Positions 14,744-50,653 of a stretch of DNA of 64,000 nt are shown here, one piece after another. Position numbers and translations under genes: made by a program. The first letter of the stretch is position 1, and each line of letters starts with the position of its first letter. The stretch spans positions 16,969 through 80,968 of the forward strand of contig DFOU01000011.1 of assembly GCA_002376865.1 (NCBI GenBank), in the 5' to 3' direction. Origin of the DNA: Patescibacteria group bacterium UBA3533 (GTDB taxonomy: Bacteria > Patescibacteriota > Minisyncoccia > Phycocordibacterales > Phycocordibacteraceae). The notes below the pieces were generated by a model that had not been told where the DNA came from, searched no databases, and saw nothing but the letters and a program-made list of their open reading frames with translations.

Positions 14744-14940
14744 CCTCCCCGACGAATGAAGTGTGCGCGAAGCTGTTGGATTTCTACATCACGGGCAGAA
14801 TCCCCTGGCGGCGGAATAAATATCCCTGGAGCTTTAGTGCCTGTCTTTCTAACACGCACGTTGCCTACGTTGCCATTTAAATACTCAACACACTCTTCGA
14901 TTGTCGGGAAGTCCAGTTCAGGAATTTCTTTACTGGACAT
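14731..14940 (-). CDS. small hypothetical protein (69 aa), GC-rich, monocistronic
   Basis: AAAGGAGGAGAGA then ATG; extended -10 (TGcTATAAT) about 33 nt upstream; own terminator. Confidence 0.45.
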   Translation of the reverse strand: MSSKEIPELDFPTIEECVEYLNGNVGNVRVRKTGTKAPGIFIPPPGDSARDVEIQQLRAHFIRRGGVEC

Positions 14941-14969
14941 TCTCTCCTCCTTTGTAGAACCTCTAAAAT

Positions 14970-14985
14970 TAAATTATAGCACCCT
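14970..14985 (-). promoter_or_regulatory. extended -10 promoter element (TGcTATAAT) for the 69-aa gene
   Basis: Minus-strand gtgctataat immediately downstream of the argS stop. Confidence 0.45.
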
Positions 14986-16615
14986 ACATCTTCTCTGGAG
15001 CCTCTATTCCCAGAAGCCATAGTCCGTTTGTCATCGTTAGGACAAATGCCTCAATAAGCAGAAGTTTGTATCCCTCATACTCTCCTCCAAGGATCTTCTC
15101 TTTTGCATAGAAACTATTAAATTCAGAAGCAAGTTCTGTTAGGAATCCTGTTACGTGGTGTGGCTCATACTTTTCTTGTGCACGAGCAACAACCTCTGGG
15201 AATCTATACAGAATCTTCTCAAGATCATATGGCTGCTCTGGAGCAACTGCATCTGCATCATCTTTTGAAGAGTCAGCAAGGATTTTCTTTGCTCGTACGA
15301 GAGCGTACTGCAGATACGGCCCTGAATCTCCCTCGGTAGAAAGTGAGTTGTTTACATCAAAGACAATGTCTCCTCCTGGCTGCTGCCGCAGAATACTGTA
15401 CTTAATTGCAGCTACTGCTACTTTCCGTGCAGTTTCTTCATCAGAATTCTGCTCTTTTACTTTCTCTACAAGATTATCGATAAGAGACTTCGCCGTTACG
15501 ATATCTCCTGTTCTTGAGCTCATCTTTCCTTCAGAGAGCTTCATCAAACCATTTGAAAGGTGCGTGATCTTTTCTGCCTGCTCTGGATGAATCTCAGAGA
15601 GAGCTTCCTTGATTACCTTGAAGTACTCTGCCTGCTCTTTTCCAGTTAGGATGATCGATTGATTGTGCTCCCACCACTCGTCCTTGATAGTTTCAAGCCC
15701 AAGCTCCTTTGCTTCATACGTTGGTGTTCCCTGCTTTGTTTTAAATACTCGAGTATGTAGCCCCTTCTTTTCTCCCTCATATACGATAGCTCCATCACTC
15801 TCTACGAAAACTCCTTTTTTAATTCCTTCCTCTACCACCTTCATTCCAACAGGCGCTGACTCACTTTCGAAAATAAATCGATCTAATTTTATATCTAAAG
15901 TATCAAGAACTTCTTGCACTCCTTCTATTGAAATCTTCCTTCCTTCCTCATGCTCTTTCATGAGATCTTTGTCTTCTCCTGCATAGATAGCTTTATTGAG
16001 TGTATCTATCTCTTCTTTTGCAGATTCATTCTCTTCGTATTCTTTTGCACCAAGAGCATATGCTTCTCCAATTACAGCAGGAGAGAGCTCTTTCCCAAGT
16101 TTTCGCAGTCCATAGATGGCCTTTGCAGCATGTGGCCCCACATCTCCTCCATATGATTCCTTTTTAACTTCTGCTCCAGAGAATTGGAGAAGCCGTGCAA
16201 TAGATTCTCCAATAGTTGCCCCCATAAGGTGCCCAATGTGAAGCTGCTTAAATGCATTAGCATTTACATACTCCATGATCACTTTGTGATCTACATTATT
16301 AGTATTGCTTCCCCACAGCCTACCGAGTGATCCAATTACCTTAAGAGATCCCGTGAAGAACTCACGAGAGAGTTTGAAGTTAATAAACCCAGGACCTGCA
16401 ATAGATACTTCCTCCACAAATGGAAGGTCAATCTTTTTTACAATCTCTTCTGCAAGTTCCTTTGGATTTACTCCCCGCTCTTTAGCAAGAGTCATGGCTA
16501 TGTTTGTTGCATAGTCTCCATGACTTAGATCTTGAGGGTGCTCAAGATGTACTGAAGAAGCCTCCACATCTGCTGCGGCAGCTACTGCTTTTTGTAGTTC
16601 TTTTACGAGATCCAT
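14984..16615 (-). CDS. argS: arginine--tRNA ligase
   Basis: 543 aa, class I HIGH region (ANAFKQLHIGHLMGATIGESIARLL); ArgRS-like N- and C-terminal architecture. Confidence 0.8.
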   Translation of the reverse strand: MDLVKELQKAVAAAADVEASSVHLEHPQDLSHGDYATNIAMTLAKERGVNPKELAEEIVKKIDLPFVEEVSIAGPGFINFKLSREFFTGSLKVIGSLGRLWGSNTNNVDHKVIMEYVNANAFKQLHIGHLMGATIGESIARLLQFSGAEVKKESYGGDVGPHAAKAIYGLRKLGKELSPAVIGEAYALGAKEYEENESAKEEIDTLNKAIYAGEDKDLMKEHEEGRKISIEGVQEVLDTLDIKLDRFIFESESAPVGMKVVEEGIKKGVFVESDGAIVYEGEKKGLHTRVFKTKQGTPTYEAKELGLETIKDEWWEHNQSIILTGKEQAEYFKVIKEALSEIHPEQAEKITHLSNGLMKLSEGKMSSRTGDIVTAKSLIDNLVEKVKEQNSDEETARKVAVAAIKYSILRQQPGGDIVFDVNNSLSTEGDSGPYLQYALVRAKKILADSSKDDADAVAPEQPYDLEKILYRFPEVVARAQEKYEPHHVTGFLTELASEFNSFYAKEKILGGEYEGYKLLLIEAFVLTMTNGLWLLGIEAPEKM

Positions 16616-16624
16616 GTATGCACT

Positions 16625-17875
16625 CTATACAAAAATCTGCGGAATGGGAAACTTTTCACAAAGCTCTTCCACCTTTTTCCGCACCTCCCCTGCTTTGCTT
16701 GTGTCTTTTAGTACTTCAACCATCCACTGCGCTACCAACTTACTTTCAGCTTCTTTAAACTTTCTTGTTGTTATAGCTGGTGTTCCAAACCTGATTCCAG
16801 ATGGATCAAGTGGTGGACGAGTATCGTCCGCAATAGCATTTTTATTAAGCGTAATACCTGCCTCATCAAGCGCATGCTCAGCCTCTGCTCCTGTAATGCC
16901 AAATGAAGTATGTACATCAAGGAGTATGAGGTGATTGCTTGTCCCTCCTGTTAGCATTCTTGCTCCAGCTTCCTTAAACACTTCCTCCATTGCCTTTGCA
17001 TTTTTAATTACCTGCTCTGCATATTCTTTAAACTGTGGGGTTAGTGCTTCTCCAAAGCACACTGCTTTTGCTGCAATCTGATGCATATGAGGACCACCCT
17101 GGAATCCTGGGAACATTGCCTTATCTACTTTCTTTGCAATTTCTCCCTTCTCTCTTATGAGGATCATTCCACCTCGAGGTCCTCGAAGAGTCTTATGTGT
17201 CGTTGTAGTCATTACATCAAATCCATAATCAAATGGATTCTCGTGTGCTCCTCCTGCGATAAGCCCTGCAATATGCGCCACGTCTGCTACCGTGTACGCA
17301 CCAACTTCATCTGCAATCTCTTTAAACTTTTTCCAATCAAGTTCTCGTGGATATGCTGAGAATCCTGCAAGGATAATTTTTGGCTTCTCTTTTAGAGCTA
17401 CTTCTCGAAGCTCGTCATAATCAATCTCCCCTGTCTCTACATCCTTCATCTTGTACCGTACAAAATTAAAGATCTTTGCAATTGCTGTAACAGGGTGCCC
17501 ATGTGTTAGATGCCCTCCATGACTTAGGTCCATTCCGAGCACCGTGTCTCCTGGCTCAAGCAAAGCAAAGTAGAGTCCAATGTTTGCATTTGCTCCTCCC
17601 AAGGGCTGTACGTTTGCGTGCTCACACTTGAAGAGCTTCTTTGCTCGCTCAATAGCAAGCAATTCTACTTTGTCCGTAAATTCTTGTCCGCCATAGTATC
17701 GCTTTCCTGGATACCCTTCTGAGTATTTATTGGTTAGTACTGAAGACATCGTCTCTCGCACTGCAGCAGATACATAGTTCTCAGACGGAATGAGTTCAAG
17801 ACCTTTATCCTGTCGCTCCTCTTCCCCTTCGAGAATCTCTAGCACTTCTTTGTCCTGTTTTTTTAGATATTCCAT
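16625..17875 (-). CDS. glyA: serine hydroxymethyltransferase
   Basis: LELIPSENYVSAAVRETMSSVLTNKYSEGYPGKRYYGG and the PLP-lysine region TTTTHKTLRGPRGG. Confidence 0.95.
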   Translation of the reverse strand: MEYLKKQDKEVLEILEGEEERQDKGLELIPSENYVSAAVRETMSSVLTNKYSEGYPGKRYYGGQEFTDKVELLAIERAKKLFKCEHANVQPLGGANANIGLYFALLEPGDTVLGMDLSHGGHLTHGHPVTAIAKIFNFVRYKMKDVETGEIDYDELREVALKEKPKIILAGFSAYPRELDWKKFKEIADEVGAYTVADVAHIAGLIAGGAHENPFDYGFDVMTTTTHKTLRGPRGGMILIREKGEIAKKVDKAMFPGFQGGPHMHQIAAKAVCFGEALTPQFKEYAEQVIKNAKAMEEVFKEAGARMLTGGTSNHLILLDVHTSFGITGAEAEHALDEAGITLNKNAIADDTRPPLDPSGIRFGTPAITTRKFKEAESKLVAQWMVEVLKDTSKAGEVRKKVEELCEKFPIPQIFV

Positions 17876-17876
17876 A

Positions 17877-18278
17877 TTATTTTTTACATTTACATCCCTT
17901 TAAATTTGCTTGGTATAAAATTGCGTTTGGATCTTTTACGAACTTCCCATCAACCAACTCTCCTGTACGTGAATTAATTTCTTTGCATACCTCTTCCATT
18001 ATTGCCGCAGGCTCATATCCCTGCTTCTTGAGTGCCCCGATGGCAAAAACAATAATGTCAGCCCACGCATCTGCAATTTCTTCTTCTGGTGCCTCTGTGT
18101 CGCCAACAATTTCTTCTGCATAGTGAGCGGCGCGCTCTCGTGCAGTTACACTGTCATACTTCCCAGTGCTTTCTAGAAGCTCTTCAAGAATAAATGAGGT
18201 TTCTTTTTTGTGATTGAATCCTTTCTCGAGAAGCCCTCGCTCTTTATTCCAATCAATTATGTTTTCAAATACATTCAT
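17877..18278 (-). CDS. MazG-like nucleoside triphosphate pyrophosphohydrolase (all-alpha NTP-PPase)
   Basis: ELLESTGKYD...YAEEIVGDTEAPEEEIADAWADIIVFAIG with spaced acidic residues typical of the MazG/dimeric dUTPase fold. Adjacent to dut. Confidence 0.5.
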   Translation of the reverse strand: MNVFENIIDWNKERGLLEKGFNHKKETSFILEELLESTGKYDSVTARERAAHYAEEIVGDTEAPEEEIADAWADIIVFAIGALKKQGYEPAAIMEEVCKEINSRTGELVDGKFVKDPNAILYQANLKGCKCKK

Positions 18279-18281
18279 AAG

Positions 18282-18713
18282 TTATTTTCCAGTACTTCCA
18301 AAGCCCCCTTCTCCTCTCTCTGTCTCATCCAAAGATTCAACTTCCTCAAAATCAGCGTGCGCAACTTCTTGCAAAAGCATTTGCGCCACCTTATCTCCCA
18401 CATCAAAGGTGTGCGCCTCTGTTCCGTGATTGATGATACCCACTTTTATCTCTCCCCTATACCCAGCATCAATAACTCCCCCGAGCACTTTAAGTCCTCG
18501 CTTTATTGCATTTCCGCTCTTATCCCAGATAAGGCCCACATACCCTTCAGGAATCGCCATAGCAAGTCCTGTTGGCACAGCCTTATATTCTCCTGGACTG
18601 ATAGTTACACCTTCTGTGCTACAAAGATCCATTCCAGCATCATCACTGTGAGCAAACTCTGGCACTTTGGCTGCCTCATGGAGTTTCTGTACTTGTATCT
18701 TGAGCTTCTTCAT
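18282..18713 (-). CDS. dut: dUTP diphosphatase
   Basis: AGMDLCS...SGNAIKRGLKVLGGVIDAGYRGEIKVGIIN...GDKVAQMLL, the classic trimeric dUTPase motifs. Confidence 0.9.
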   Translation of the reverse strand: MKKLKIQVQKLHEAAKVPEFAHSDDAGMDLCSTEGVTISPGEYKAVPTGLAMAIPEGYVGLIWDKSGNAIKRGLKVLGGVIDAGYRGEIKVGIINHGTEAHTFDVGDKVAQMLLQEVAHADFEEVESLDETERGEGGFGSTGK

Positions 18714-18748
18714 ATCTGGATGTTCTGCTGTTTAGTTTCTCTATTCTA

Positions 18749-19441
18749 TCACGCTCTATTTTTTAGGATATTTTGCACCAGAGCCCATAATTCCTCATGA
18801 ATATCTTCCCGTGTTCGAGGCTTTCCACGCTGCGCACACGCAATTCTGTACCAAGCATTTAATTTCTTAACTATTGAAAGTGCTCTCTTTCGAGAATTTT
18901 CTTGGTATTCAAGACTCTCTTCCGTTGCGTCTTTCTTTCCTTTTGTATATTCCTTTCCTTTCTTTGCTTCTTTTAGGAGTTCTGCGGCAACTTTAACTGG
19001 CATGTCTAAATAGATAATGGCATCGGGGCGCGGAATTTTAAAAACACCATGTTCCATCTCATCAAGCCATGTAAGGAATGTTTTTAGTTTCTTTGCGTCT
19101 TGGATTTTCCCTCCTTGATGTATTTGGTTTGCACTTACATACCGATCAAGAATCACGGTATATCCTTTTTTCATCCAGTCTTCTATTTTCTTTTTTGATT
19201 CAAACCTATCTGCAGCATACAAAACCGATGCAATGTGCGGATCAGTCTTTAGGAAATCTCCATGGTCTCCAACAAGACACTCTCCTATTAGCTTCCCAAA
19301 GAAATTATTTTCGTAGTGAGGGAAATCCAGAGTACGTACAGGAATCTTTTCTTTTTTTAGACGTTTTAGAAGAAGTTCCGTTTGCGTTGCCTTTCCACTT
19401 CCATCTCCGCCATCCAGTACTATCAGTTTTCCGCGCTTCAT
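18749..19441 (-). CDS. tmk: thymidylate kinase
   Basis: P-loop GKLIVLDGGDGSGKATQ; about 230 aa. Confidence 0.85.
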   Translation of the reverse strand: MKRGKLIVLDGGDGSGKATQTELLLKRLKKEKIPVRTLDFPHYENNFFGKLIGECLVGDHGDFLKTDPHIASVLYAADRFESKKKIEDWMKKGYTVILDRYVSANQIHQGGKIQDAKKLKTFLTWLDEMEHGVFKIPRPDAIIYLDMPVKVAAELLKEAKKGKEYTKGKKDATEESLEYQENSRKRALSIVKKLNAWYRIACAQRGKPRTREDIHEELWALVQNILKNRA

Positions 19442-19498
19442 ATTGGAGCAATTGTACCTTATTTTGTTAATTTTTGAGCGTGGTAAAATTCTCTCTAT

Positions 19499-20344
19499 AT
19501 GAAGAAATATCTGAACCTGTTAGACGACGTATTAGAAAATGGAGTAGACCGAGAAGGACGAAATGGAACAACCCGTGCAGTCTTTGCACGCCAAGCCCGC
19601 TTCAATCTAGAAGATGGCTTCCCTGCAGTTACTACAAAGAAACTTGCCTGGAAGGCAGTAGTGTCTGAGCTCCTTTGGTTTATCGAAGGTTCAGGAGACG
19701 ATAATCGTCTAAAAGAAATTCTAGGGAAAGATAAAACCATCTGGAGCGCTAATGCGAATGCTGACTACTGGAAACCAAAGGCAAAATTCGATGGAGACCT
19801 TGGACGAGTGTACGGCGTGCAATGGAGATCTTGGCAAAAGCCCGATGGAAGTACAGTAGATCAATTGGCTGAGGTTATCGAGCGCATTAAAAATGATCCC
19901 TATGATCGAAGATTAATCGTAAGCGCTTGGAATCCAGGAGAGCTAGACCTTATGGCACTTCCTCCTTGTCATATGTTCTTCCAGTTTTTTGTAACTCCAG
20001 ATGAGTCTGGGAAGCCTGCAAAACTGTCACTGCATATGGTGCAACGAAGTTGTGATCTGTTCCTTGGAGTTCCATTTAACATTGCATCGTATGCCCTCCT
20101 TCTTTCTATGGTGGCGCAAGTAACGGGACTTAAACCATTTGAGCTTGTTATGAGCTTTAATGACCTACATATATATGGGGATCATATGGATGCAGTAAAG
20201 GAGCAGTTGAAGCGAGAGCCTATGGACCTCCCTACTCTTAAGCTTAATCCTGATGTTAAAAATATTGATGATTTCACAATGGATGATATTGAACTAGAAG
20301 GCTACAAATCGCACGACACCATAAAGGCAAAGATGGCGGTGTAG
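19499..20344 (+). CDS. thyA: thymidylate synthase (ThyA type)
   Basis: LLWFIEGSGD, RVYGVQWRSW, IVSAWNPGELDLMALPPCHMFFQFFV (catalytic Cys). Confidence 0.95.
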   Translation: MKKYLNLLDDVLENGVDREGRNGTTRAVFARQARFNLEDGFPAVTTKKLAWKAVVSELLWFIEGSGDDNRLKEILGKDKTIWSANANADYWKPKAKFDGDLGRVYGVQWRSWQKPDGSTVDQLAEVIERIKNDPYDRRLIVSAWNPGELDLMALPPCHMFFQFFVTPDESGKPAKLSLHMVQRSCDLFLGVPFNIASYALLLSMVAQVTGLKPFELVMSFNDLHIYGDHMDAVKEQLKREPMDLPTLKLNPDVKNIDDFTMDDIELEGYKSHDTIKAKMAV

Positions 20345-20368
20345 AATATAAAAGGAAAGGAGACGATT

Positions 20369-20899
20369 ATGGCTATCAAAATCATTGCAGCAATTGGAGA
20401 TAAGCGTCTCCTGGGAGTTGTTAAAGACGGAAAGCATGGTCTTCCGTGGCGAATTCCTGAAGACTCAAAACATTTTAGCCACAGCACAAATGGTGCGGTA
20501 GTTATTATGGGAAGATCTACATGGGAATCTTTGCCAGATAGGTTTAGGCCTCTTCCGGATCGAACAAACTTTGTTCTTACAAGAAATCCTGATTATAGAG
20601 CAGAGGGCGCTAGAGTTTTCCCTGGTCTACATGAAGCACTTGAGGTTGCAGAAACTTTAAGTGACAAGACCATTTGGATTATGGGAGGCGCTAGCATCTA
20701 CGAGCAGGCACTCCCTATCGTCGATGAACTCTCTCTTACAATTGTAGAGGAAGAGCTCCTTCCTCCACCAATGGGAGGAGAGGAGCGCATTCTCTTCCCA
20801 GAGTACGAGCATCTTTTTGAATGCATAGACTCAACTCCTCGCATGCGCTCAGACAATAAAAATATTCCATACCGCTTTCAAACTTGGAAGCGAAAATAA
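20369..20899 (+). CDS. folA: dihydrofolate reductase
   Basis: IKIIAAIGDKRLLG...GLPWRIPEDSKHFSHSTNGAVVIMGRSTWESLP; AAGGAAAGGAG RBS. Confidence 0.9.
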   Translation: MAIKIIAAIGDKRLLGVVKDGKHGLPWRIPEDSKHFSHSTNGAVVIMGRSTWESLPDRFRPLPDRTNFVLTRNPDYRAEGARVFPGLHEALEVAETLSDKTIWIMGGASIYEQALPIVDELSLTIVEEELLPPPMGGEERILFPEYEHLFECIDSTPRMRSDNKNIPYRFQTWKRK

Positions 20900-20902
20900 G
20901 GA

Positions 20903-20940
20903 AAGGGCTTGGAGTTATCTCCAAGCCCTTTATTCTTTTG
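20903..20940 (+). terminator. bidirectional terminator between folA and the convergent HAD-like gene
   Basis: aagggcttggag / ctccaagccctt stem followed by tattctttt. Confidence 0.6.
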
Positions 20941-21631
20941 CATTAATCCGCCTAAGCAATCCTGCCCAGTCTGCAATGTAGCCACAGTTCTTCGGACGAA
21001 TGAAGTCTGCGCTGTCTTTTGCATTGTAGTGATGCATGAAGAGCATTCGCAGAGTCGCAAGTGAATCATCTCCTGGTGCAAGCTGACGCTTCTTGTCATC
21101 TACGAATAGATCATATTCGTGAAGGACTTGCGTCTTATCTTTTGCACCAAACACCATTGGCACGTGAAGACCGTGCGCTTTACACCAATTCTCTACAACC
21201 TCGGCCGAAAAACCAGGTCCGCGAGAAGTAACGATGCTCACGTCATGTCCTGCTTCTACAAGTTCCTTGATCGCAGCAATTGCTCCAGGAATCTCAGGAA
21301 TATTCTCCGCATACTCAGGGCGCTCATAGAGCACTTGCTTCATAGCTTCATATTCCTCAGAAGTCACACTCAGGAGTGTTCCATCCTGCTGATGTGACTT
21401 ATCTTCAAGCACCCATTCTTTGGTGAAGGTATACAATGGCGTACGGCCACTGTATACAGCCACAATCATCTTGCGATATTCTTCAGAAAACGGAACCACA
21501 TTATCGTTCCCCAGATAGGGACCCTTCATGCTGTCACCATCTTCGAATTTGCCGTACATTTCCATGAGCACAAGACGACGAGCCTCATGCACATTGGCAA
21601 TGACGCCGGACCAATCAAGTCCTATTTTCAT
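20930..21631 (-). CDS. HAD-like hydrolase, possibly a 5'(3')-deoxyribonucleotidase-like enzyme
   Basis: N-terminal MKIGLDWSGVI (degenerate HAD motif I), IVTSRG (motif II), YDLFVDDKK (motif IV-like). Sits in the dNMP metabolism cluster. Confidence 0.35.
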   Translation of the reverse strand: MKIGLDWSGVIANVHEARRLVLMEMYGKFEDGDSMKGPYLGNDNVVPFSEEYRKMIVAVYSGRTPLYTFTKEWVLEDKSHQQDGTLLSVTSEEYEAMKQVLYERPEYAENIPEIPGAIAAIKELVEAGHDVSIVTSRGPGFSAEVVENWCKAHGLHVPMVFGAKDKTQVLHEYDLFVDDKKRQLAPGDDSLATLRMLFMHHYNAKDSADFIRPKNCGYIADWAGLLRRINAKE

Positions 21632-21671
21632 CTTGATACTCCTTTTTCTTCTGTGGAGAAGGTACCGTATC

Positions 21672-22876: not shown

Positions 22877-22914
22877 GATTTTAAAAAAGCCCTTCCGGGC
22901 CCTTACTTACTTGG

Positions 22915-22942
22915 AGTATAGCACTTATCTGCCTTAGGTCAA
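22915..22942 (-). promoter_or_regulatory. sigma70-like promoter for secE (TTGACC, 16 bp spacer, TATACT) followed by a short GC hairpin plus T6 in the leader
   Basis: Minus-strand ttgacc taaggcagataagtgc tatact, then gcccggaagggc tttttt, 12 nt before the secE ATG. Confidence 0.4.
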
Positions 22943-23369: not shown

Positions 23370-23407
23370 TTACAAAGAAAAGGGGCGCCTCAAAAAGAGA
23401 CGCCCCT
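23370..23407 (-). terminator. intrinsic terminator after the GC-rich 306-aa gene
   Basis: aggggcg / cgcccct stem, then ttttctttg on the minus strand. Confidence 0.6.
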
Positions 23408-23426
23408 GTTTGCCGACTGGTGAAAG

Positions 23427-24347
23427 CTAGGCTTTCACTTTCGGCTTCTTGAAAGTATTCGGAGGTTGCGGCGACTTGCCTTTGGTGGCAATCGTACGCT
23501 GCCGATCGAGCTCAGCACGCGCAGCCTTCTTGGCAGCAGCTTCAGCCCGTGAACCCTTCTTCTTGGGTCCGGCTTTGTGGAGCGAAACGACATTGTCGTT
23601 CCTGCCACCGAAGCGACCGTCATAGAAGCGCTTGTAGAGCCCTTCGAGACGGCGATTCACGCCTTCATTCGCCTGGTCACGATACTTCGTGACGAGAGAG
23701 CGAAAGCGCTGGCGCGACTCCGGCGAGAAGGATTCCGGATGCTCACTCGCATGGCCGATCAGCCAATGCATCGTCTTGTCCACATCCCTTTCAATCGTCT
23801 GCTCGATGATATCCAGAGTGCGAACGGTAACGAGCTCCTTGAGTTCGTCCATCTCGACGGAAGAATCGTAGGCTTTGCCGCCCTGGTTCGTAAGGCGAAC
23901 CTTGCGACCGGTTGCCGTCAGCACGATGATGCTGGCGTCTTCAGGCAGGAGCCAAAGCTCCTCTCGAGAAGTCACCTTCCCGCTGCGCTTGACGGTGCCG
24001 GCGTCGATCTGCTCGGCGCTCGAATTGTTCGGAGCATACACTCCGTGCTGAGCGACCTGTGTGTCCTTCACGCCGTAGCCGGTATGCACGAGCACGATGA
24101 TGTCGTTCCCCGCACCTTTCTCCGAAAGATGCGGTTCATCCCCGTGCAGGAAAAGCTGCTCGAACGGCGTATGCTGGAGCTTGCCGTAAAAACGAATGAA
24201 TCGCTCCCAGCCGCCAGACTCTCGATTGCCCAAATACAGAGCACTCGTGCTGTTGGGCGTAAGACCAGAGATTCTGATCCCAGCCGTAGGCGTAGCGTCA
24301 GAGAGAATGGTGATGGCGTTCGCGGTATTCGAAACGGGAACTTGCAT
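23427..24347 (-). CDS. hypothetical protein (306 aa), strongly GC-rich (about 58%), Lys-rich basic C-terminal tail
   Basis: ACAGGAGGGTTCC then ATG. Flanked by terminators on both sides. GC-rich third codon positions. No confident domain assignment. Confidence 0.55.
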   Translation of the reverse strand: MQVPVSNTANAITILSDATPTAGIRISGLTPNSTSALYLGNRESGGWERFIRFYGKLQHTPFEQLFLHGDEPHLSEKGAGNDIIVLVHTGYGVKDTQVAQHGVYAPNNSSAEQIDAGTVKRSGKVTSREELWLLPEDASIIVLTATGRKVRLTNQGGKAYDSSVEMDELKELVTVRTLDIIEQTIERDVDKTMHWLIGHASEHPESFSPESRQRFRSLVTKYRDQANEGVNRRLEGLYKRFYDGRFGGRNDNVVSLHKAGPKKKGSRAEAAAKKAARAELDRQRTIATKGKSPQPPNTFKKPKVKA

Positions 24348-24377
24348 GGAACCCTCCTGTGAAAAAAGTTTCGAAGA

Positions 24378-24407
24378 TCAAATAGAAAAGAGGACCTCAT
24401 GTCCTCT
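24378..24407 (-). terminator. intrinsic terminator after the SIMPL-domain gene
   Basis: agaggac ctcat gtcctct hairpin, then ttttctatttg on the minus strand. Confidence 0.55.
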
Positions 24408-24445
24408 ATCTAATACTATTATACCACCTGTGTAGTATTTGTCAA

Positions 24446-25249
24446 CTATCTGATTTCGTACGTAATATTTACGCGAGCGGTAATCTCACTCTCTCCTACT
24501 GGGATTTCAGGTGTTGCACTTCCTCCCTTTGCATACGCTCCATCAAATGAAGCCTCGTACATAGGGTATCCGTATCGATCACTGCTCTCCCAGAAGCCAA
24601 CAACTCGCACAAGACTTACCCCAAGATCCTTTGCAAGGGTTCGAGCCTTGTCTTTTGCTTCTTTAATAGCCTCTTCTCGAGCTTCAGCTTGAATCTTGTC
24701 TAGATCATCGATCTCGAAGTTTGGTCCGTGAATGTTTTGTACATTCATCTCTCCAAGACCTCCAAGAACCACCCCTACTTGGTCTAGGTCCCGAATTTTC
24801 ACCGATACACTCTGACTTACCTCATACCCACTAAGTACCTGCTCTCCTCCCCTACACGATACACCCGGCAGACATGTTGTCTGAAGGTAGTCATACTGAG
24901 GATATACATTGTATGAATTTGTCTTGATATCCTTGTCTGCAATATCCTGATCATCAAGGTGTGCAAGCACTGAGCTTATAAGCTCTGTTGTCTGCGACTG
25001 TGCTGACGCAACAGTGTCTTCCTCAAAAGAAACCGTGAATGAGATTGTTGCAATATCTGGCACTGCAACCGCCTCCCCCACTCCCTCAACTGAGATAGTG
25101 TTTGTGGCAGGAACACCACTTCCGATAAATCGAAGCTCCATTAATCCTGCTAATGTTTGCACTGCCAAAAATGCAGCAAGGAGAAGAAATACTGCAGTTA
25201 CTGCATTGTTTTTCTTATACTCCACAATTTTTTCAAATATTTCTTTCAT
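24446..25249 (-). CDS. SIMPL-domain (DUF541, YggE-like) periplasmic protein
   Basis: Signal/TM anchor, then SVEGVGEAVAVPDIATISFTV...QSVSVKIRDLDQVGVVLG...EAREEAIKEAKDKARTLAKDLG. Confidence 0.7.
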   Translation of the reverse strand: MKEIFEKIVEYKKNNAVTAVFLLLAAFLAVQTLAGLMELRFIGSGVPATNTISVEGVGEAVAVPDIATISFTVSFEEDTVASAQSQTTELISSVLAHLDDQDIADKDIKTNSYNVYPQYDYLQTTCLPGVSCRGGEQVLSGYEVSQSVSVKIRDLDQVGVVLGGLGEMNVQNIHGPNFEIDDLDKIQAEAREEAIKEAKDKARTLAKDLGVSLVRVVGFWESSDRYGYPMYEASFDGAYAKGGSATPEIPVGESEITARVNITYEIR

Positions 25250-27206: not shown

Positions 27207-27584
27207 ATGGCAGAGTTTCAACTTATAGACCTTGGTGAAGGAAACGGTGGGGACGGCGAGGTGCGGGACAACTTCAGAGACGCACTGCGTGATCTTTATG
27301 CTCGCATCCAACATGTTCATGAACACAGAATTCTGACACAGCAGTGGCTGGAAACAGCTATATGGATTCGCATAACACACACTGTCACCGAACTGACTGG
27401 GCCAATCTATTTCTATGATGCACGTGATATCGCGCACCATTATGGTCTTGTTGATGATGGCGGGAAAACCATCAAAGACGATGTGCAAGAGCCTGATGAG
27501 GATATATTACTCGAAGCGGCCTTGTTGTGTGCTGCCCAAGGCACCGCCAAAGAATACATCGAGAATCTCAAGGCCGTAGCTTGA
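27207..27584 (+). CDS. hypothetical protein (125 aa), GC-elevated
   Basis: CAGGAG RBS, own promoter and terminator (27599-27640); about 50% GC. Confidence 0.5.
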   Translation: MAEFQLIDLGEGNGGDGEVRDNFRDALRDLYARIQHVHEHRILTQQWLETAIWIRITHTVTELTGPIYFYDARDIAHHYGLVDDGGKTIKDDVQEPDEDILLEAALLCAAQGTAKEYIENLKAVA

Positions 27585-47231: not shown

Positions 47232-47684
47232 TTAGCGATAGCGGCCACTGCCGTAGTAGCTGGTGCGGCACGCAGGATGGCGATCCCAGCGAGTCACACA
47301 TTCGAAGCGATCCTCATGGAGCATCACGTCGAACTCTTCGGCCACACACGGGCCACGACGACGCTGGTTACAGCGAGGAATCGTGACAGAACGCCACTGT
47401 TCTTCGCCCTCCAGGCGCACCCAGACGATGTGGGCCGCATCACTCATGTGACGAAGCCGGTCCGAATGCATCGCTCCAGGTCGCCCCAAGATGGTGCAGT
47501 GGCCGCGGACATACCCTTCAGCTTGCGTGGTGCAAACCTCGAAAGGTAGTCCGGAGCGAAACTGGATGTTCCCAGTGTCGCCGAAGTTGAAGAAGTTACG
47601 GGCATCGCCCGAACCAACTTCGGCTGTGGTTGCGCACCCTCCGAGGAGGGTGAGCGCGGCAAGTAAAGGTACAAGATGACGCAT
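47232..47684 (-). CDS. putative lipoprotein (150 aa), about 60% GC, Cys-rich
   Basis: GGAGGG then ATG; signal peptide with lipobox LLGGC; composition sharply different from its neighbours. Confidence 0.55.
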   Translation of the reverse strand: MRHLVPLLAALTLLGGCATTAEVGSGDARNFFNFGDTGNIQFRSGLPFEVCTTQAEGYVRGHCTILGRPGAMHSDRLRHMSDAAHIVWVRLEGEEQWRSVTIPRCNQRRRGPCVAEEFDVMLHEDRFECVTRWDRHPACRTSYYGSGRYR

Positions 47685-47760
47685 GTCACCCTCCATTCAT
47701 TAGTGAATACTGTGTATATTATATAACTTTACTATGTTTTTGTCAATATAGATACTTCGT

Positions 47761-47813: not shown

Positions 47814-49472
47814 GTGCCTATGCCAGAGTTTAAGGATGGAGATAAAACCCTAGACGCCGCACGGCGCGCTGAAGCTGAAGATGTTTCAGAGATTTTAGCG
47901 AATCGATACAACCTTGGGTACATAAACCTAAGCACCTACCCCATAAACCCTGAGGCACTTCGTTTGAGTACTGAGGATGAAGCAAGAGCAATGCGTATTG
48001 TTCCCTTTCAAAAAGAAGGAAAGGTTGTGAGCATTGCTTTTGATAGGCCGACAAATCAAAATATTGATACATTTGCTCAGGAACTTTCTTCAAAAGGATT
48101 TTCTGTGGAGAAATTCCTTGTATCTTCATACAGTATTGAAAAAGCTCTTACTCGATATGCTGATCTTGATGCAGCATCTACAAGCACTCCTGGAGCATTT
48201 ACTATTTCAGAAAATAGATTGGCAGAAGAGCTCTCTCAATTAACTTCCCCAGCTGACATTACGAAAAAAGTAGACTCTTTGAGCAAGTTAGATAAGGCAC
48301 GACGTGCCACACGACTACTTGAGGTTCTTTTTGCAGGAGCTGCCTCAGTTGGCGCATCTGATATTCACCTTGAGCCTGGAGAGGAGGCAGCTCGCATTCG
48401 AATGCGAGTTACCGGAATGCTCCAAGACATTGCTCGTATTGATCTTCCAGCATACAGCCTGCTCCTTTCACGTATTAAATTGCTCTCTGCAATGAAGTTA
48501 AATGTGCACACACGTCCACAAGACGGACGATTTAGTATTGCTATCGGAGAGAATGACGTAGAAGTGCGAGCATCTGCCATTCCTGGAGCTTTTGGAGAAT
48601 CTATGGTGCTGCGTGTTCTTAACTCAGAGCAAAGTAAGGTATCAATAGACTCGCTTGGTATCCCAGAAAATATTCTCTCTCGTATTGAAAAGGAAATTAG
48701 AAAGCCAAATGGAATGCTTCTCACAACAGGACCTACAGGATCTGGAAAAACAACAGCACTGTATGCATTCCTTCAAAAGATTTACTCTCCCGACATTAAG
48801 ATTATTACCATCGAAGATCCTGTTGAGTATAAATTGCCAGGAATTGTACAGACACAAGTTGAAAAAGATAAGTACACCTTTGCCTCAGGACTTAAGTCAT
48901 CTCTTCGACAAGACCCTGATGTAATTATGGTTGGAGAGATTCGAGATGCAGACGTTGCGGAGACCGCAATTAGAGCATCTCTAACAGGACACTTTGTACT
49001 TTCAACGCTCCACACCAATTCTGCGGCAGGAACCTTCCCTCGCCTTGTAAATCTTGGTGTTGATCCAAAGAGTTTTGGTTCTGCAATTAATGTAGCGATG
49101 GGACAGCGTCTTGTGAGGGTATTAGATCCTGCCAAAACAAAGGATGCACCTCTTGAAGGAGCAGAGAAAGAGTTTGTAGAGAAGCACCTCTCTACCCTTC
49201 CTGAGAACGTAGAAAAGCCAGAGGTTCCTGAAATGCAGAAAGTGCCTGCGACAGATACTCCAGCTGATGCTTTTGTAAGTCGAGTTGGAATTTACGAGGC
49301 AATCTTTATGGACGATGAGCTTGCTGAGTTCCTAAAAAGTAGCCCTAGCGAGAGTGCTATACAAAAAGAAGCGCACCGACAAGGTACGCTTACAATGGCC
49401 CAAGATGGAGTGCTTAAGGCACTTAAGGGCACAACTACAATCGCAGAAGTGATGCGAGTTGTAGGTGAATAG
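47814..49472 (+). CDS. pilB: type IV pilus assembly ATPase PilB (GspE family)
   Basis: Walker A LLTTGPTGSGKTT, Walker B/Asp box VGEIRD, His box LSTLHTNSAAG. The ORF starts with GTG at 47814; first ATG is at 47820. Confidence 0.9.
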   Translation: MPMPEFKDGDKTLDAARRAEAEDVSEILANRYNLGYINLSTYPINPEALRLSTEDEARAMRIVPFQKEGKVVSIAFDRPTNQNIDTFAQELSSKGFSVEKFLVSSYSIEKALTRYADLDAASTSTPGAFTISENRLAEELSQLTSPADITKKVDSLSKLDKARRATRLLEVLFAGAASVGASDIHLEPGEEAARIRMRVTGMLQDIARIDLPAYSLLLSRIKLLSAMKLNVHTRPQDGRFSIAIGENDVEVRASAIPGAFGESMVLRVLNSEQSKVSIDSLGIPENILSRIEKEIRKPNGMLLTTGPTGSGKTTALYAFLQKIYSPDIKIITIEDPVEYKLPGIVQTQVEKDKYTFASGLKSSLRQDPDVIMVGEIRDADVAETAIRASLTGHFVLSTLHTNSAAGTFPRLVNLGVDPKSFGSAINVAMGQRLVRVLDPAKTKDAPLEGAEKEFVEKHLSTLPENVEKPEVPEMQKVPATDTPADAFVSRVGIYEAIFMDDELAEFLKSSPSESAIQKEAHRQGTLTMAQDGVLKALKGTTTIAEVMRVVGE

Positions 49473-49672
49473 AAAAAACGCATAGTCCCTAAGGCAATTA
49501 AGATCCCTGAACCTGGGGAGTCAATCAGCAACAAAACCGAAGTAATGCACCAATTGGTCCCTGGGACGGGCCCAAGCCGTCAAGCTTTGCCTTAGAGACT
49601 ATACGTTCTTGTCTAAAGAAAAAGGCGAGTAAAGTACTCGCACTGGAAAGGATTCTATCATATAATACAGAC

Positions 49673-50653
49673 ATGTCAAGTACCCCGGAAGAAAAGAAAG
49701 ATATACGAGTAGACCTCGACGCAACACTTCGCCCTGATAATTGGAAGGAGTATGTAGGTCAGGAGCATGCAAAAGAGAACCTCAAGATCTCTATTGAGGC
49801 TGCTAAAAACCGTGGAGAGCTTCCGGAGCACCTACTTTTCTATGGACCTCCTGGTGTTGGAAAGACAACACTAGCGCACGTTATCGCAAATGAGCTAGAC
49901 GCTCCTGTGCGAGTAACATCAGGTGTTGCAGTTGAGCGTGCAGCAGATTTAGCTGCCATCCTTACAAACTTAGAGCCAGGAGACGTGCTCTTTATTGATG
50001 AGATTCATCAACTTTCAAAGAAAGTGGAGGAGCTTCTCTACCCTGCCCTTGAAGCAGGGAGGCTCGATATTATTTTAGGGAAAGGACCATCAGCTCGTAC
50101 TGTGCAACTAGACCTTCCTCCATTTGCACTCGTTGGTGCAACGACACGAATTGCCCAGGTATCGTCCCCTCTTCGCTCTCGCTTTGGAGGAGGAGTTCAT
50201 CAACTTGATTTATATACTGACGAAGAGATTCAAACGATCATCTCTCGATCTGCAAAGCTTCTAAAGTTTGATGTGCCTGAAGATGTTCTAAAACTTATTG
50301 CACACCGTTCACGATCTACTCCAAGAACTGCAAACTTCCTCTTAAAGAGGTTTAGAGATTATGTCTCTGTACAAGACAAGAAGCCTGATCCAAAGTTGTT
50401 TGCAGATGCATGTACATTGTTTGGAATAGACGAGATGGGACTTACTAAAGACGATAGACGATATCTTAAAGTTCTAATCGAGACATTCCGAGGGGGACCT
50501 GTTGGAAGCAAGACACTCGCTACAGCTCTTGGAGAAGAAGTTACAACACTTGAAGACCTTTACGAGCCATACCTTATCCGTCTTGGGTTTGTTGAAAGAA
50601 CAACAAGAGGACGTACTGCAACAAAGAAAGCATATGAGCATTTGGATTTATAG
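49673..50653 (+). CDS. ruvB: Holliday junction DNA helicase RuvB
   Basis: LLFYGPPGVGKTTLAHVIANEL, DVLFIDEIHQLS, GATTRIAQVSSPLRSRFG. Confidence 0.95.
   Translation: MSSTPEEKKDIRVDLDATLRPDNWKEYVGQEHAKENLKISIEAAKNRGELPEHLLFYGPPGVGKTTLAHVIANELDAPVRVTSGVAVERAADLAAILTNLEPGDVLFIDEIHQLSKKVEELLYPALEAGRLDIILGKGPSARTVQLDLPPFALVGATTRIAQVSSPLRSRFGGGVHQLDLYTDEEIQTIISRSAKLLKFDVPEDVLKLIAHRSRSTPRTANFLLKRFRDYVSVQDKKPDPKLFADACTLFGIDEMGLTKDDRRYLKVLIETFRGGPVGSKTLATALGEEVTTLEDLYEPYLIRLGFVERTTRGRTATKKAYEHLDL

Follow-up and report, generated by a model that had tools for sequence, protein, structure and literature searches.

A GC-rich, lineage-restricted gene of 306 codons in the SIMPL-secE spacer of Paceibacteria

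How does a single gene come to be much richer in G and C than the DNA around it, and does it belong where it is found? The question is raised by a gene for a protein of 306 amino acids (aa) on the minus strand of a 64,000-nucleotide (nt) stretch of contig DFOU01000011.1 (assembly GCA_002376865.1, Patescibacteria group bacterium UBA3533). This whole stretch is called the window below, and coordinates are those of the window unless another locus is named; loci from related genomes carry designations beginning with L or P. By its NusG, which is encoded nearby, the host belongs to a marine Patescibacteria (Paceibacteria/Parcubacteria) lineage of metagenome-assembled genomes known as 'UBA2103'. The open reading frame (ORF) is very likely a real, selected gene that is resident at this locus, because the ratio of nonsynonymous to synonymous substitution (dN/dS) is 0.24-0.29 in comparison with two orthologues (63-65% identical, dS approximately 1) and third codon positions change approximately twice as often as first and second positions. 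The gene and its predicted expression signals are as follows.

23427..24347, minus strand: coding sequence (CDS) of the 306-aa protein, ATG start; 33.9 kDa, isoelectric point 9.6 (from the ORF list)
24418..24445, minus strand: sigma70-type promoter, TTGACA (24445-24440), 16-nt spacer and TATAAT (24423-24418); score 12/12
24379..24407, minus strand: leader hairpin AGAGGAC-ATGAG-GTCCTCT (stem-loop 24407-24389, 7-bp stem) followed by UUUCUAUUUG, from the terminator scan
24352..24358, minus strand: Shine-Dalgarno sequence AGGAGGG, four nt before the ATG, read from the sequence
23371..23407, minus strand: intrinsic terminator (hairpin 23407-23381), 11-bp stem with 8 G-C pairs, followed by UUUCUUUGUA

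The GC content of the gene is 57.2% (0.60, 0.44 and 0.68 at first, second and third codon positions, or GC1, GC2 and GC3), compared with 42.5% for the window, 45.1% for the 3 kb to the left and 42.9% for the 3 kb to the right. Among 921-bp sliding windows (mean GC 0.425, standard deviation 0.031), the gene is the maximum in 64 kb. The compositional difference reported in a preliminary description of this locus is thus real, although its size is 12-15 points rather than the 15-18 given there. The excess is confined to synonymous sites: GC3 stands at 0.678, where the host mean is 0.357 (z = 4.2), GC1 (z = 0.8) and GC2 (z = 1.3) deviate little and the amino acid composition is host-like. At third positions, the gene family has an A frequency of 0.08-0.12 (host 0.34) and a C frequency of 0.31-0.44 (host 0.13). 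The asymmetry between A and T at these positions is strong (A 0.08-0.12, T 0.15-0.25), and CpG is not avoided in the family. The shift is bounded by the ends of the CDS. GC content is 36.7% in the 98 nt before the start codon, GC3 has a background value of 0.30-0.38 in the final 150 codons of the SIMPL gene that precedes the CDS, and secE has a GC3 of 0.41. When k-mers in the gene were compared with synonymous shuffles, none stood out and no repeated DNA motif was found.

The exact 306-aa protein is present in NCBI, JGI, ENA, Logan and GEM assemblies and is nameless in every one of these sources. A 261-aa ORF on the opposite strand (23577..24362, plus strand) was considered as an overlapping gene and rejected as an artefact, as the preliminary description had supposed. 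Its frame is exactly codon-opposed to that of the 306-aa gene, such that its stop codons correspond to the sense codons TTA, CTA and TCA, which are used 0, 0 and 1 times. In P5, P7 and P8, the antisense frame is interrupted by 3, 14 and 8 stops, respectively. The antisense translation is 44-49% identical between orthologues (compared with 63-67% for the sense protein) and has no match in Pfam.

Homologues are few and confined to one place. A word-indexed search with the 306-aa protein gave 3 matches in 5.8e9 clusters, and an exhaustive HMMER profile search gave 6 matches in 1.84e9 representatives. Counted as one sequence per locus, the family consists of eight divergent members (22-65% identity) from approximately 15 billion proteins searched. 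None of the eight has a name in any source. In every case the gene lies directly before secE-nusG-rplK, and the hosts are marine or aquatic Paceibacteria, members of the Candidate Phyla Radiation (CPR); a SIMPL/DUF541 gene lies upstream of the family member wherever the contig extends that far. The gene is found in none of 80 reference loci, including that of the sister species (L004). NusG of this species is 100% and SIMPL 95% identical to that of the window, and the flanks have 87-92% nucleotide identity. Where the window has 1,082 nt running from promoter through terminator, L004 has 21 nt, and the right junction is exact. The 21-nt remainder has no significant match, so no deletion scar was identified. 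The preliminary description had held that a protein specific to the lineage and present in all relatives at this locus would speak against a special status for the gene; it is indeed lineage-specific and fixed in position, but it is absent from most relatives.

The GC offset from the host is a property of the family. The offsets of the eight members are +0.144, +0.151, +0.144, +0.141, +0.123, +0.081, +0.058 and +0.147. In a null distribution built from 1,031 genes of 81 Paceibacteria loci, the 99.5th percentile is +0.126; six of the eight members lie beyond it, and the window's gene is in the top 0.7% of the 1,031 genes. Across members, the GC content of the gene follows that of the host (r = 0.85, slope 0.9) over a host range of 37-57%. 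Synonymous divergence between the same hosts is extensive, with a dS of 0.85-1.7 for the flanking SIMPL gene. Under neutral decay, an offset would fall to 34% of its initial value at 0.5 substitutions per site per lineage and to 11% at 1.0. The GC3 offset today is 0.26-0.32 in every lineage, and inheritance would require an ancestral GC3 greater than 1. Because neutral decay at the dS of SIMPL would need this impossible starting value, the offset is not an inherited remnant, and the GC excess is probably actively maintained. The fixation bias needed for it is S of approximately 1.1-1.3 relative to other genes. The gene evolves two to six times faster than its flanks (dN 0.26-0.80 compared with 0.10-0.15).

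The signals around the gene are as distinctive as its composition. The promoter spacer ends in TGG, forming an extended -10 element, and only two perfect 12/12 promoters were found on either strand of the window, one for the 306-aa gene and one for orf154 (discussed below). The score uses an E. coli-type consensus, and promoter strength is judged from that consensus. A TTGAC(A/G)...TGGTATA(A/C)T promoter is kept upstream of the family members in L001, L002, P5, P7 and P8. The leader hairpin begins approximately 11 nt past the -10 box. It is predicted to fold with -13.3 kcal/mol (z = -2.4), compared with -12.8 to -17.7 for the hairpins at this position in four orthologues, and at five of ten base pairs both sides have changed in a compensatory way. 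A U-run comes after the hairpin in the window, L001, P4 and P5. Because these loci have no other SIMPL terminator there, whereas L002 has a hairpin lacking the U-run and a separate SIMPL terminator upstream of the promoter, the hairpin probably serves both as the terminator of SIMPL and as the 5'-proximal stem-loop of the 306-aa gene mRNA.

The Shine-Dalgarno sequence is kept as GGGAGG or AGGAGGG in L001, L002, P4 and P6. The terminator downstream of the gene is strong (-24.5 kcal/mol, z = -5.0), and an equivalent terminator follows the gene in the other seven family members; in those lacking orf121 (see below), its T-run directly adjoins the secE promoter at the -35 box. Terminator-like sites are frequent in the region (11, compared with 2.6 +/- 1.5 expected from shuffles). 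An Rfam search of 21.5-25.5 kb found no element, with a Phe-leader hit (E = 0.29) at chance level. The strong ribosome binding site of the preliminary description, AGGAGGG four nt before the ATG, is borne out. Hairpins with T-runs are present on both sides of the gene as described there, but the upstream one is not an insulator, because the gene's own promoter (24445-24418, minus strand) lies upstream of it and the hairpin is part of the leader. This promoter falls outside the interval that the preliminary description covered and had been overlooked.

The second perfect promoter of the window (TTGACA-17-TATAAT, 47746-47718, minus strand) precedes orf154 (47232-47696, minus strand), which encodes a putative lipoprotein of 154 aa with a signal peptide and an LLGGC lipobox. 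This gene has a GC content of 59.8%, is followed by a terminator and has no match in Pfam. Two other genomes have orthologues (64-67% identical) at the same locus (PilB-like gene, orf154, TsaE, PolA), and their GC offsets are +0.125 and +0.119; the range for orf154 is +0.12 to +0.17. Two further unannotated genes are preceded by promoters of this kind: a 229-aa gene of L055 (1810-2499, plus strand) behind a 12/12 promoter (GC3 offset +0.149) and a 125-aa gene of the window (27207-27584, plus strand) behind an 11/12 promoter (GC3 offset +0.105). Both may be in the same class as the 306-aa gene. A candidate small structured RNA is located at approximately 49470-49680 (minus strand), in the gap that separates the PilB-like gene from the next one. 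Its 11/12 promoter (TTGACA-16-TAGAAT) is followed by a 5' hairpin and a long closed rod that ends in U6, and a 176-nt stretch of it has a predicted folding energy of -73.2 kcal/mol (z = -6.8). No Rfam family matches it at the gathering score or at E <= 1.

The protein can be divided into three parts.

23853..24347, minus strand: N-terminal beta-rich domain, aa 1-165, with the motifs GGWERF, (I/L)VLVxTG, AQHGV and SREELWLLPE (from alignments)
23619..23852, minus strand: four-helix region, aa 166-243, confident in the AlphaFold model
23430..23618, minus strand: C-terminal module, aa 244-306, with a YDGRFGG..DNVV motif followed by a Lys/Arg/Ala-rich tail

The N-terminal domain is the sole part common to the longer homologues P0006-P0008. 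In the AlphaFold model, the strands of residues 83-163 have a predicted local distance difference test (pLDDT) score of 56-74, residues 1-79 score below 50 and a basic helix (267-289) is placed between low-confidence segments. No signal peptide or transmembrane segment was seen by eye. Neither the protein, nor its separate domains, nor any family member had a match in Pfam, PHROGs, NCBIfam or PADLOC, and the PDB, searched by sequence and by profile, yielded hits at chance level only (uS9, E = 0.035; PYL3, E = 0.14). No fold match was obtained either. Pfam and PHROG likewise detected none of the homing-endonuclease domains GIY-YIG, HNH, LAGLIDADG and PD-(D/E)xK. The N-terminal extensions of P0007 and P0008 were suspected to contain a SAP/HeH-like motif, for which Pfam gives no support.

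Two features of the protein had been pointed out in the preliminary description. The first, the Lys-rich basic tail, holds throughout the family: the last 50 aa of the window protein contain 16 Lys and Arg residues (net charge +13), and those of all eight members contain 13-21 (net charge +9 to +17). In the 306-310 aa class, the rest of the protein has a charge of -5 to +6. The second, a set of His-containing motifs, is present in this sequence but not conserved. H69, H73, H88, H199 and H203 all vary, and a conserved His-based metal site was therefore rejected; H101 and H194 are the only His residues that are invariant among the three closest sequences. Family-invariant residues are mostly Gly and include no catalytic-looking set, which argues against an enzyme. 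From its composition, the protein could quite plausibly bind nucleic acid.

The explanation favoured for these observations is that the gene is lineage-restricted and dispensable yet functional, standing alone in a slot that it would have occupied since before these Paceibacteria lineages diverged. Its own consensus promoter would drive a transcript with a conserved stem-loop, a strong Shine-Dalgarno sequence and a strong terminator, a layout that, to judge from the sequence, resembles that of an abundant, stable mRNA. The synonymous sites would be kept G/C-rich (specifically C-rich and A-poor) mainly by selection linked to very high expression, and this selection would presumably act at the DNA or mRNA level. 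The product would be a cytoplasmic protein with an N-terminal domain of unrecognised fold, a four-helix bundle and a partly disordered basic tail. Judged from composition, its most likely activity would be binding of DNA or RNA by the tail without sequence specificity, with the folded domains giving specificity or allowing oligomerisation.

Expression-linked selection is favoured because of the perfect promoters, the parallel offered by orf154, an association between promoter quality and GC3 and the conservation of promoter, hairpin, Shine-Dalgarno sequence and terminator. The association comes from 1,053 genes: GC3 offsets are raised in the 10 whose promoters score at least 11/12 (Mann-Whitney p = 0.003), among them unrelated genes of L055 and L008. 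In published experiments, fitness reportedly responded to synonymous G+C content, or to the mRNA as such, independently of codon adaptation (PMC4478552, PMC6112741). Taken as a whole, this explanation is the best available and is advanced tentatively. Its central step, that the GC excess is maintained because of (predicted) expression, is put forward with greater reserve.

Several observations weigh against it. The genes rplK, nusG and secE, presumably well expressed, have an ordinary GC3 of 0.34-0.45. Four of the 10 genes behind the promoter association come from the two families in question (the 306-aa and orf154 families). The smaller GC offsets of P7 (+0.058) and P6 (+0.081) fit less well, and it is somewhat surprising that an abundant protein should be dispensable in the sister species L004. 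Folding of the mRNA relative to synonymous shuffles gives z-scores of -3.1 to -5.6 for the gene and -2.6 to -4.1 for controls. Selection for mRNA structure as the specific cause was rejected, since the folding is no stronger than that of controls. Regarding the protein, no DNA- or RNA-binding domain was detected in the 306-aa sequence, and the AlphaFold2 models are poor overall (mean pLDDT 50 with 3 sequences and 58.8 with 8 sequences).

A broader form of the same explanation, and a rather doubtful one, is that ultra-small CPR bacteria have a small class of hyper-transcribed, stand-alone genes, each of them with a perfect promoter, a strong terminator and a stem-loop at the 5' end. Selection on mRNA or DNA (S of approximately 1.3) would hold their synonymous sites G/C-rich and A-poor. 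On this view, the 306-aa protein would be among the most abundant of the cell and would form a lineage-specific, basic-tailed coat for the chromosome or for RNA.

The alternatives depend largely on the nature of the site at which the gene is found, a slot with the following boundaries and additional contents.

24446..25249, minus strand: SIMPL/DUF541 gene, left boundary of the slot (Pfam PF04402, E = 8.7e-49)
22883..22942, minus strand: right boundary of the slot, made up of the secE promoter TTGACC-16-TATACT (22942-22915) and the leader hairpin of the next line
22902-22883, minus strand: secE leader hairpin GGGCCCGGAAGGGC followed by U6, approximately 12 nt past the secE promoter and just before the start codon
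22960..23325, minus strand: orf121, a second and unrelated cargo gene of the slot, with normal GC content (44.5%)

In 69 of the 80 related reference loci, secE has SIMPL on its upstream side, as is the rule in Paceibacteria. The spacer between the two genes has a median length of 166 bp in these 69 loci and is shorter than 300 bp in 48 of them, so that the 306-aa gene occupies a stretch which in most relatives is short and holds no gene; the preliminary description had noted that it interrupts an otherwise conserved region. The same secE promoter and leader hairpin come next, whether after the gene or after the empty site, in L001, L002, L004, L005, L006, P4, P5, P7 and P8. The secE-nusG leader is also conserved in L085, L088, L091 and L084; it is attenuator-like and belongs to no Rfam family. 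The cargo orf121 has an 81% identical counterpart in the sister species L004, which lacks the 306-aa gene, and is missing from L001, L002 and L088, where the 306-aa gene is present; orf121 has no match in Pfam or PHROG.

Other slot ORFs, unrelated to the family, are elevated in GC: L005:4887-5711 (+0.093), L008:4582-5550 (+0.091, behind an 11/12 promoter), a 270-aa ORF in the spacer of L057 (approximately +0.12) and L079:5217-5540 (GC3 +0.316). None of these four has a match in Pfam. The possibility that such ORFs are hidden family members was rejected, since only that of L057 is weakly tail-like (hmmsearch E = 1.6e-4 in a 26-sequence set; hhalign probability 4.6%, tail only). No tRNA was found in the slot in the window and 24 relatives, and neither tRNA-Trp nor rpmG, proposed as possible occupants of this position in relatives, was found there. 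No integrase or transposase was found in the neighbourhood, and no target-site duplication was found at the junction between window and L004 sequence. Beside rplK (approximately 14900-21650) is a cluster of genes for thymidine monophosphate and one-carbon metabolism, comprising an NT5C-like nucleotidase, dihydrofolate reductase, thymidylate synthase, thymidylate kinase, dUTPase and serine hydroxymethyltransferase. Its order is kept in L088, and it is ordinary-looking but unusually complete for a 0.6-Mb genome.

The main rival explanation for the composition is GC-biased gene conversion. The SIMPL-secE spacer would be a recombination hot spot that swaps alleles and cargo between Paceibacteria, and biased repair of heteroduplexes would enrich G and C there whatever the function of the protein. 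Divergence at the locus is discordant in the manner expected: the flanks are nearly equidistant (SIMPL dN 0.10-0.15, NusG 90-94% identical), whereas the alleles have a dN of 0.26-0.30 within a class and 0.66-0.80 between classes, and allele classes only 36-40% identical occur in one host clade. Null alleles exist in L004 and L006, L005 has unrelated cargo and the unrelated cargo of L005, L008 and L079 is GC-elevated as listed above. A link between recombination and GC3 that is independent of codon selection has also been reported across bacteria (Lassalle et al. 2015, PMC4450053). However, the shift stops at the ends of the CDS, leaving the upstream 98 nt, the end of SIMPL and secE at or near background, and orf121 and the slot ORFs of L020 and L063 are not GC-elevated. 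Gene conversion would also leave unexplained both the asymmetry between A and T at third positions and the link to perfect promoters. The alleles are too few and too saturated for breakpoint tests, and recombination is one possible reading of the discordance in divergence. This rival is considered somewhat unlikely.

A second alternative concerns function and is compatible with any explanation of the composition. The gene could take part in conflict, whether anti-phage defence, immunity or inter-bacterial antagonism, and be under diversifying selection, with the tail engaging foreign nucleic acid. The variable slot between core genes, the presence or absence of the gene between sister species, the deep allele classes within one host clade and the rapid evolution relative to the flanks would all suit such a role. 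The dN/dS ratio, however, is well under 1, and the position has been kept across family-level divergence, a constancy that defence genes do not usually show. The 5,027 PADLOC models include no match to any of the eight members; nuclease, ATPase, TIR, SIR2 and other effector domains were not found; the mostly Gly invariant residues offer nothing catalytic-looking; and no defence genes are located nearby. A conflict function is therefore judged unlikely.

According to a third alternative, an unsampled GC-rich reservoir (a phage, plasmid or host of approximately 60% GC) keeps seeding the same site, and the copies are young and unameliorated. The patchy distribution of the gene, its absence from the sister species and the differing slot cargo of other genomes would agree with repeated import. 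So would the cassette-like arrangement, with its own promoter and terminator and a junction of terminator T-run plus TTGAC on both sides. Set against this, all eight members lie in Paceibacteria at this slot, with none elsewhere. Searches of 50,697 phage and 72,556 plasmid records (tblastn) and of IMG/VR contigs gave no match to the family, and a scan of JGI metagenomes for an external source found nothing. The boundaries lack an integrase, a tRNA and a target-site duplication, and the amino acid composition is host-like. In addition, gene GC rises with host GC from 43% to 65%, which a common pool would not produce. Continued import of this kind is improbable.

A single recent transfer from a high-GC bacterium such as an actinobacterium, the origin first suspected, would account for a gene that exceeds the genome by 14 points in GC, is the most extreme outlier of the window and is missing from most relatives, but is very improbable given that every detectable homologue is in Paceibacteria, that orthologues of 22-65% identity share the locus and an offset that tracks host GC, that the decay arithmetic excludes an inherited offset and that a deviant GC3 beside host-like GC1 and GC2 is the reverse of the order of amelioration. 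Composition alone suggests a foreign island, and the 306-aa gene is instead an old resident, so calls of horizontal gene transfer that are based on GC content may mislead in reduced genomes.

Should the broader form of the favoured explanation be correct, the locus would be a natural, lineage-replicated demonstration of selection on synonymous G+C in an AT-rich reduced genome. A GC3 excess of approximately 30 points in one family and in a second gene of the same genomes, across lineages with saturated synonymous sites, makes the long-debated GC-favouring force testable in nature. If the predicted high expression is real, the protein, which is unannotated in every database, may also be one of the major nucleic-acid-associated proteins of an uncultured CPR lineage.

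Comparison with known systems places the protein, the transcript and the locus in context. Histone-H1-like tails rich in Lys, Ala and Pro are found in Chlamydia Hc1, in the C-terminal tail of mycobacterial HupB/MDP1 and in Pseudomonas AlgP and PhaF. The 306-aa family resembles these proteins in having a Lys/Arg/Ala-rich C-terminus of approximately 50 aa (+9 to +17) attached to a near-neutral folded body. Its tail is conserved in composition more than in sequence. It differs in lacking their tandem AKP/PAKKA-type repeats and in having unrelated folded domains, and searches of Pfam, NCBIfam and PDB (sequence and profile) gave no match to Hc1, HU/HupB, AlgP, PhaF or similar proteins.

Long-lived, strongly expressed mRNAs such as those of ompA, lpp and aprE are transcribed from a consensus-like promoter, begin with a stem-loop at the 5' end and have both a strong Shine-Dalgarno sequence and a strong terminator. 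The elements come in the same order here, and the stem-loop begins within a few nt of the predicted 5' end, which would be near 24411. In this case, however, the stem-loop is followed by a U-run and occupies the terminator site of the upstream gene, such that it could attenuate the transcript rather than stabilise it.

Selection or biased gene conversion favouring synonymous G+C has been described in bacteria (Kelkar et al. 2015, PMC4478552; Mittal et al. 2018, PMC6112741; Lassalle et al. 2015, PMC4450053). As in those studies, the push seen here is independent of the codon preference of the genome, and S of approximately 1.1-1.3 is within the range discussed. Unlike the published forces, which are genome-wide or graded, it affects one or two genes of an AT-rich reduced genome, amounts to approximately 30 GC3 points and coincides with perfect consensus promoters.

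The closest parallel is with compositional single-gene islands, accessory ORFans that were acquired by horizontal transfer and occupy intergenic hot spots. Like them, the 306-aa gene has its own promoter and terminator between core genes, stands out strongly in GC, is missing from most relatives and has no homologue of known function. It differs in having no donor lineage, mobility gene, tRNA or boundary repeat, and in belonging to a family that is limited to the host lineage and to one position. Moreover, its GC deviation is synonymous-only, conserved and host-tracking, and so is maintained rather than decaying. The locus is thus a variant of these islands: an unannotated, lineage-restricted, fast-evolving accessory gene at a fixed address.

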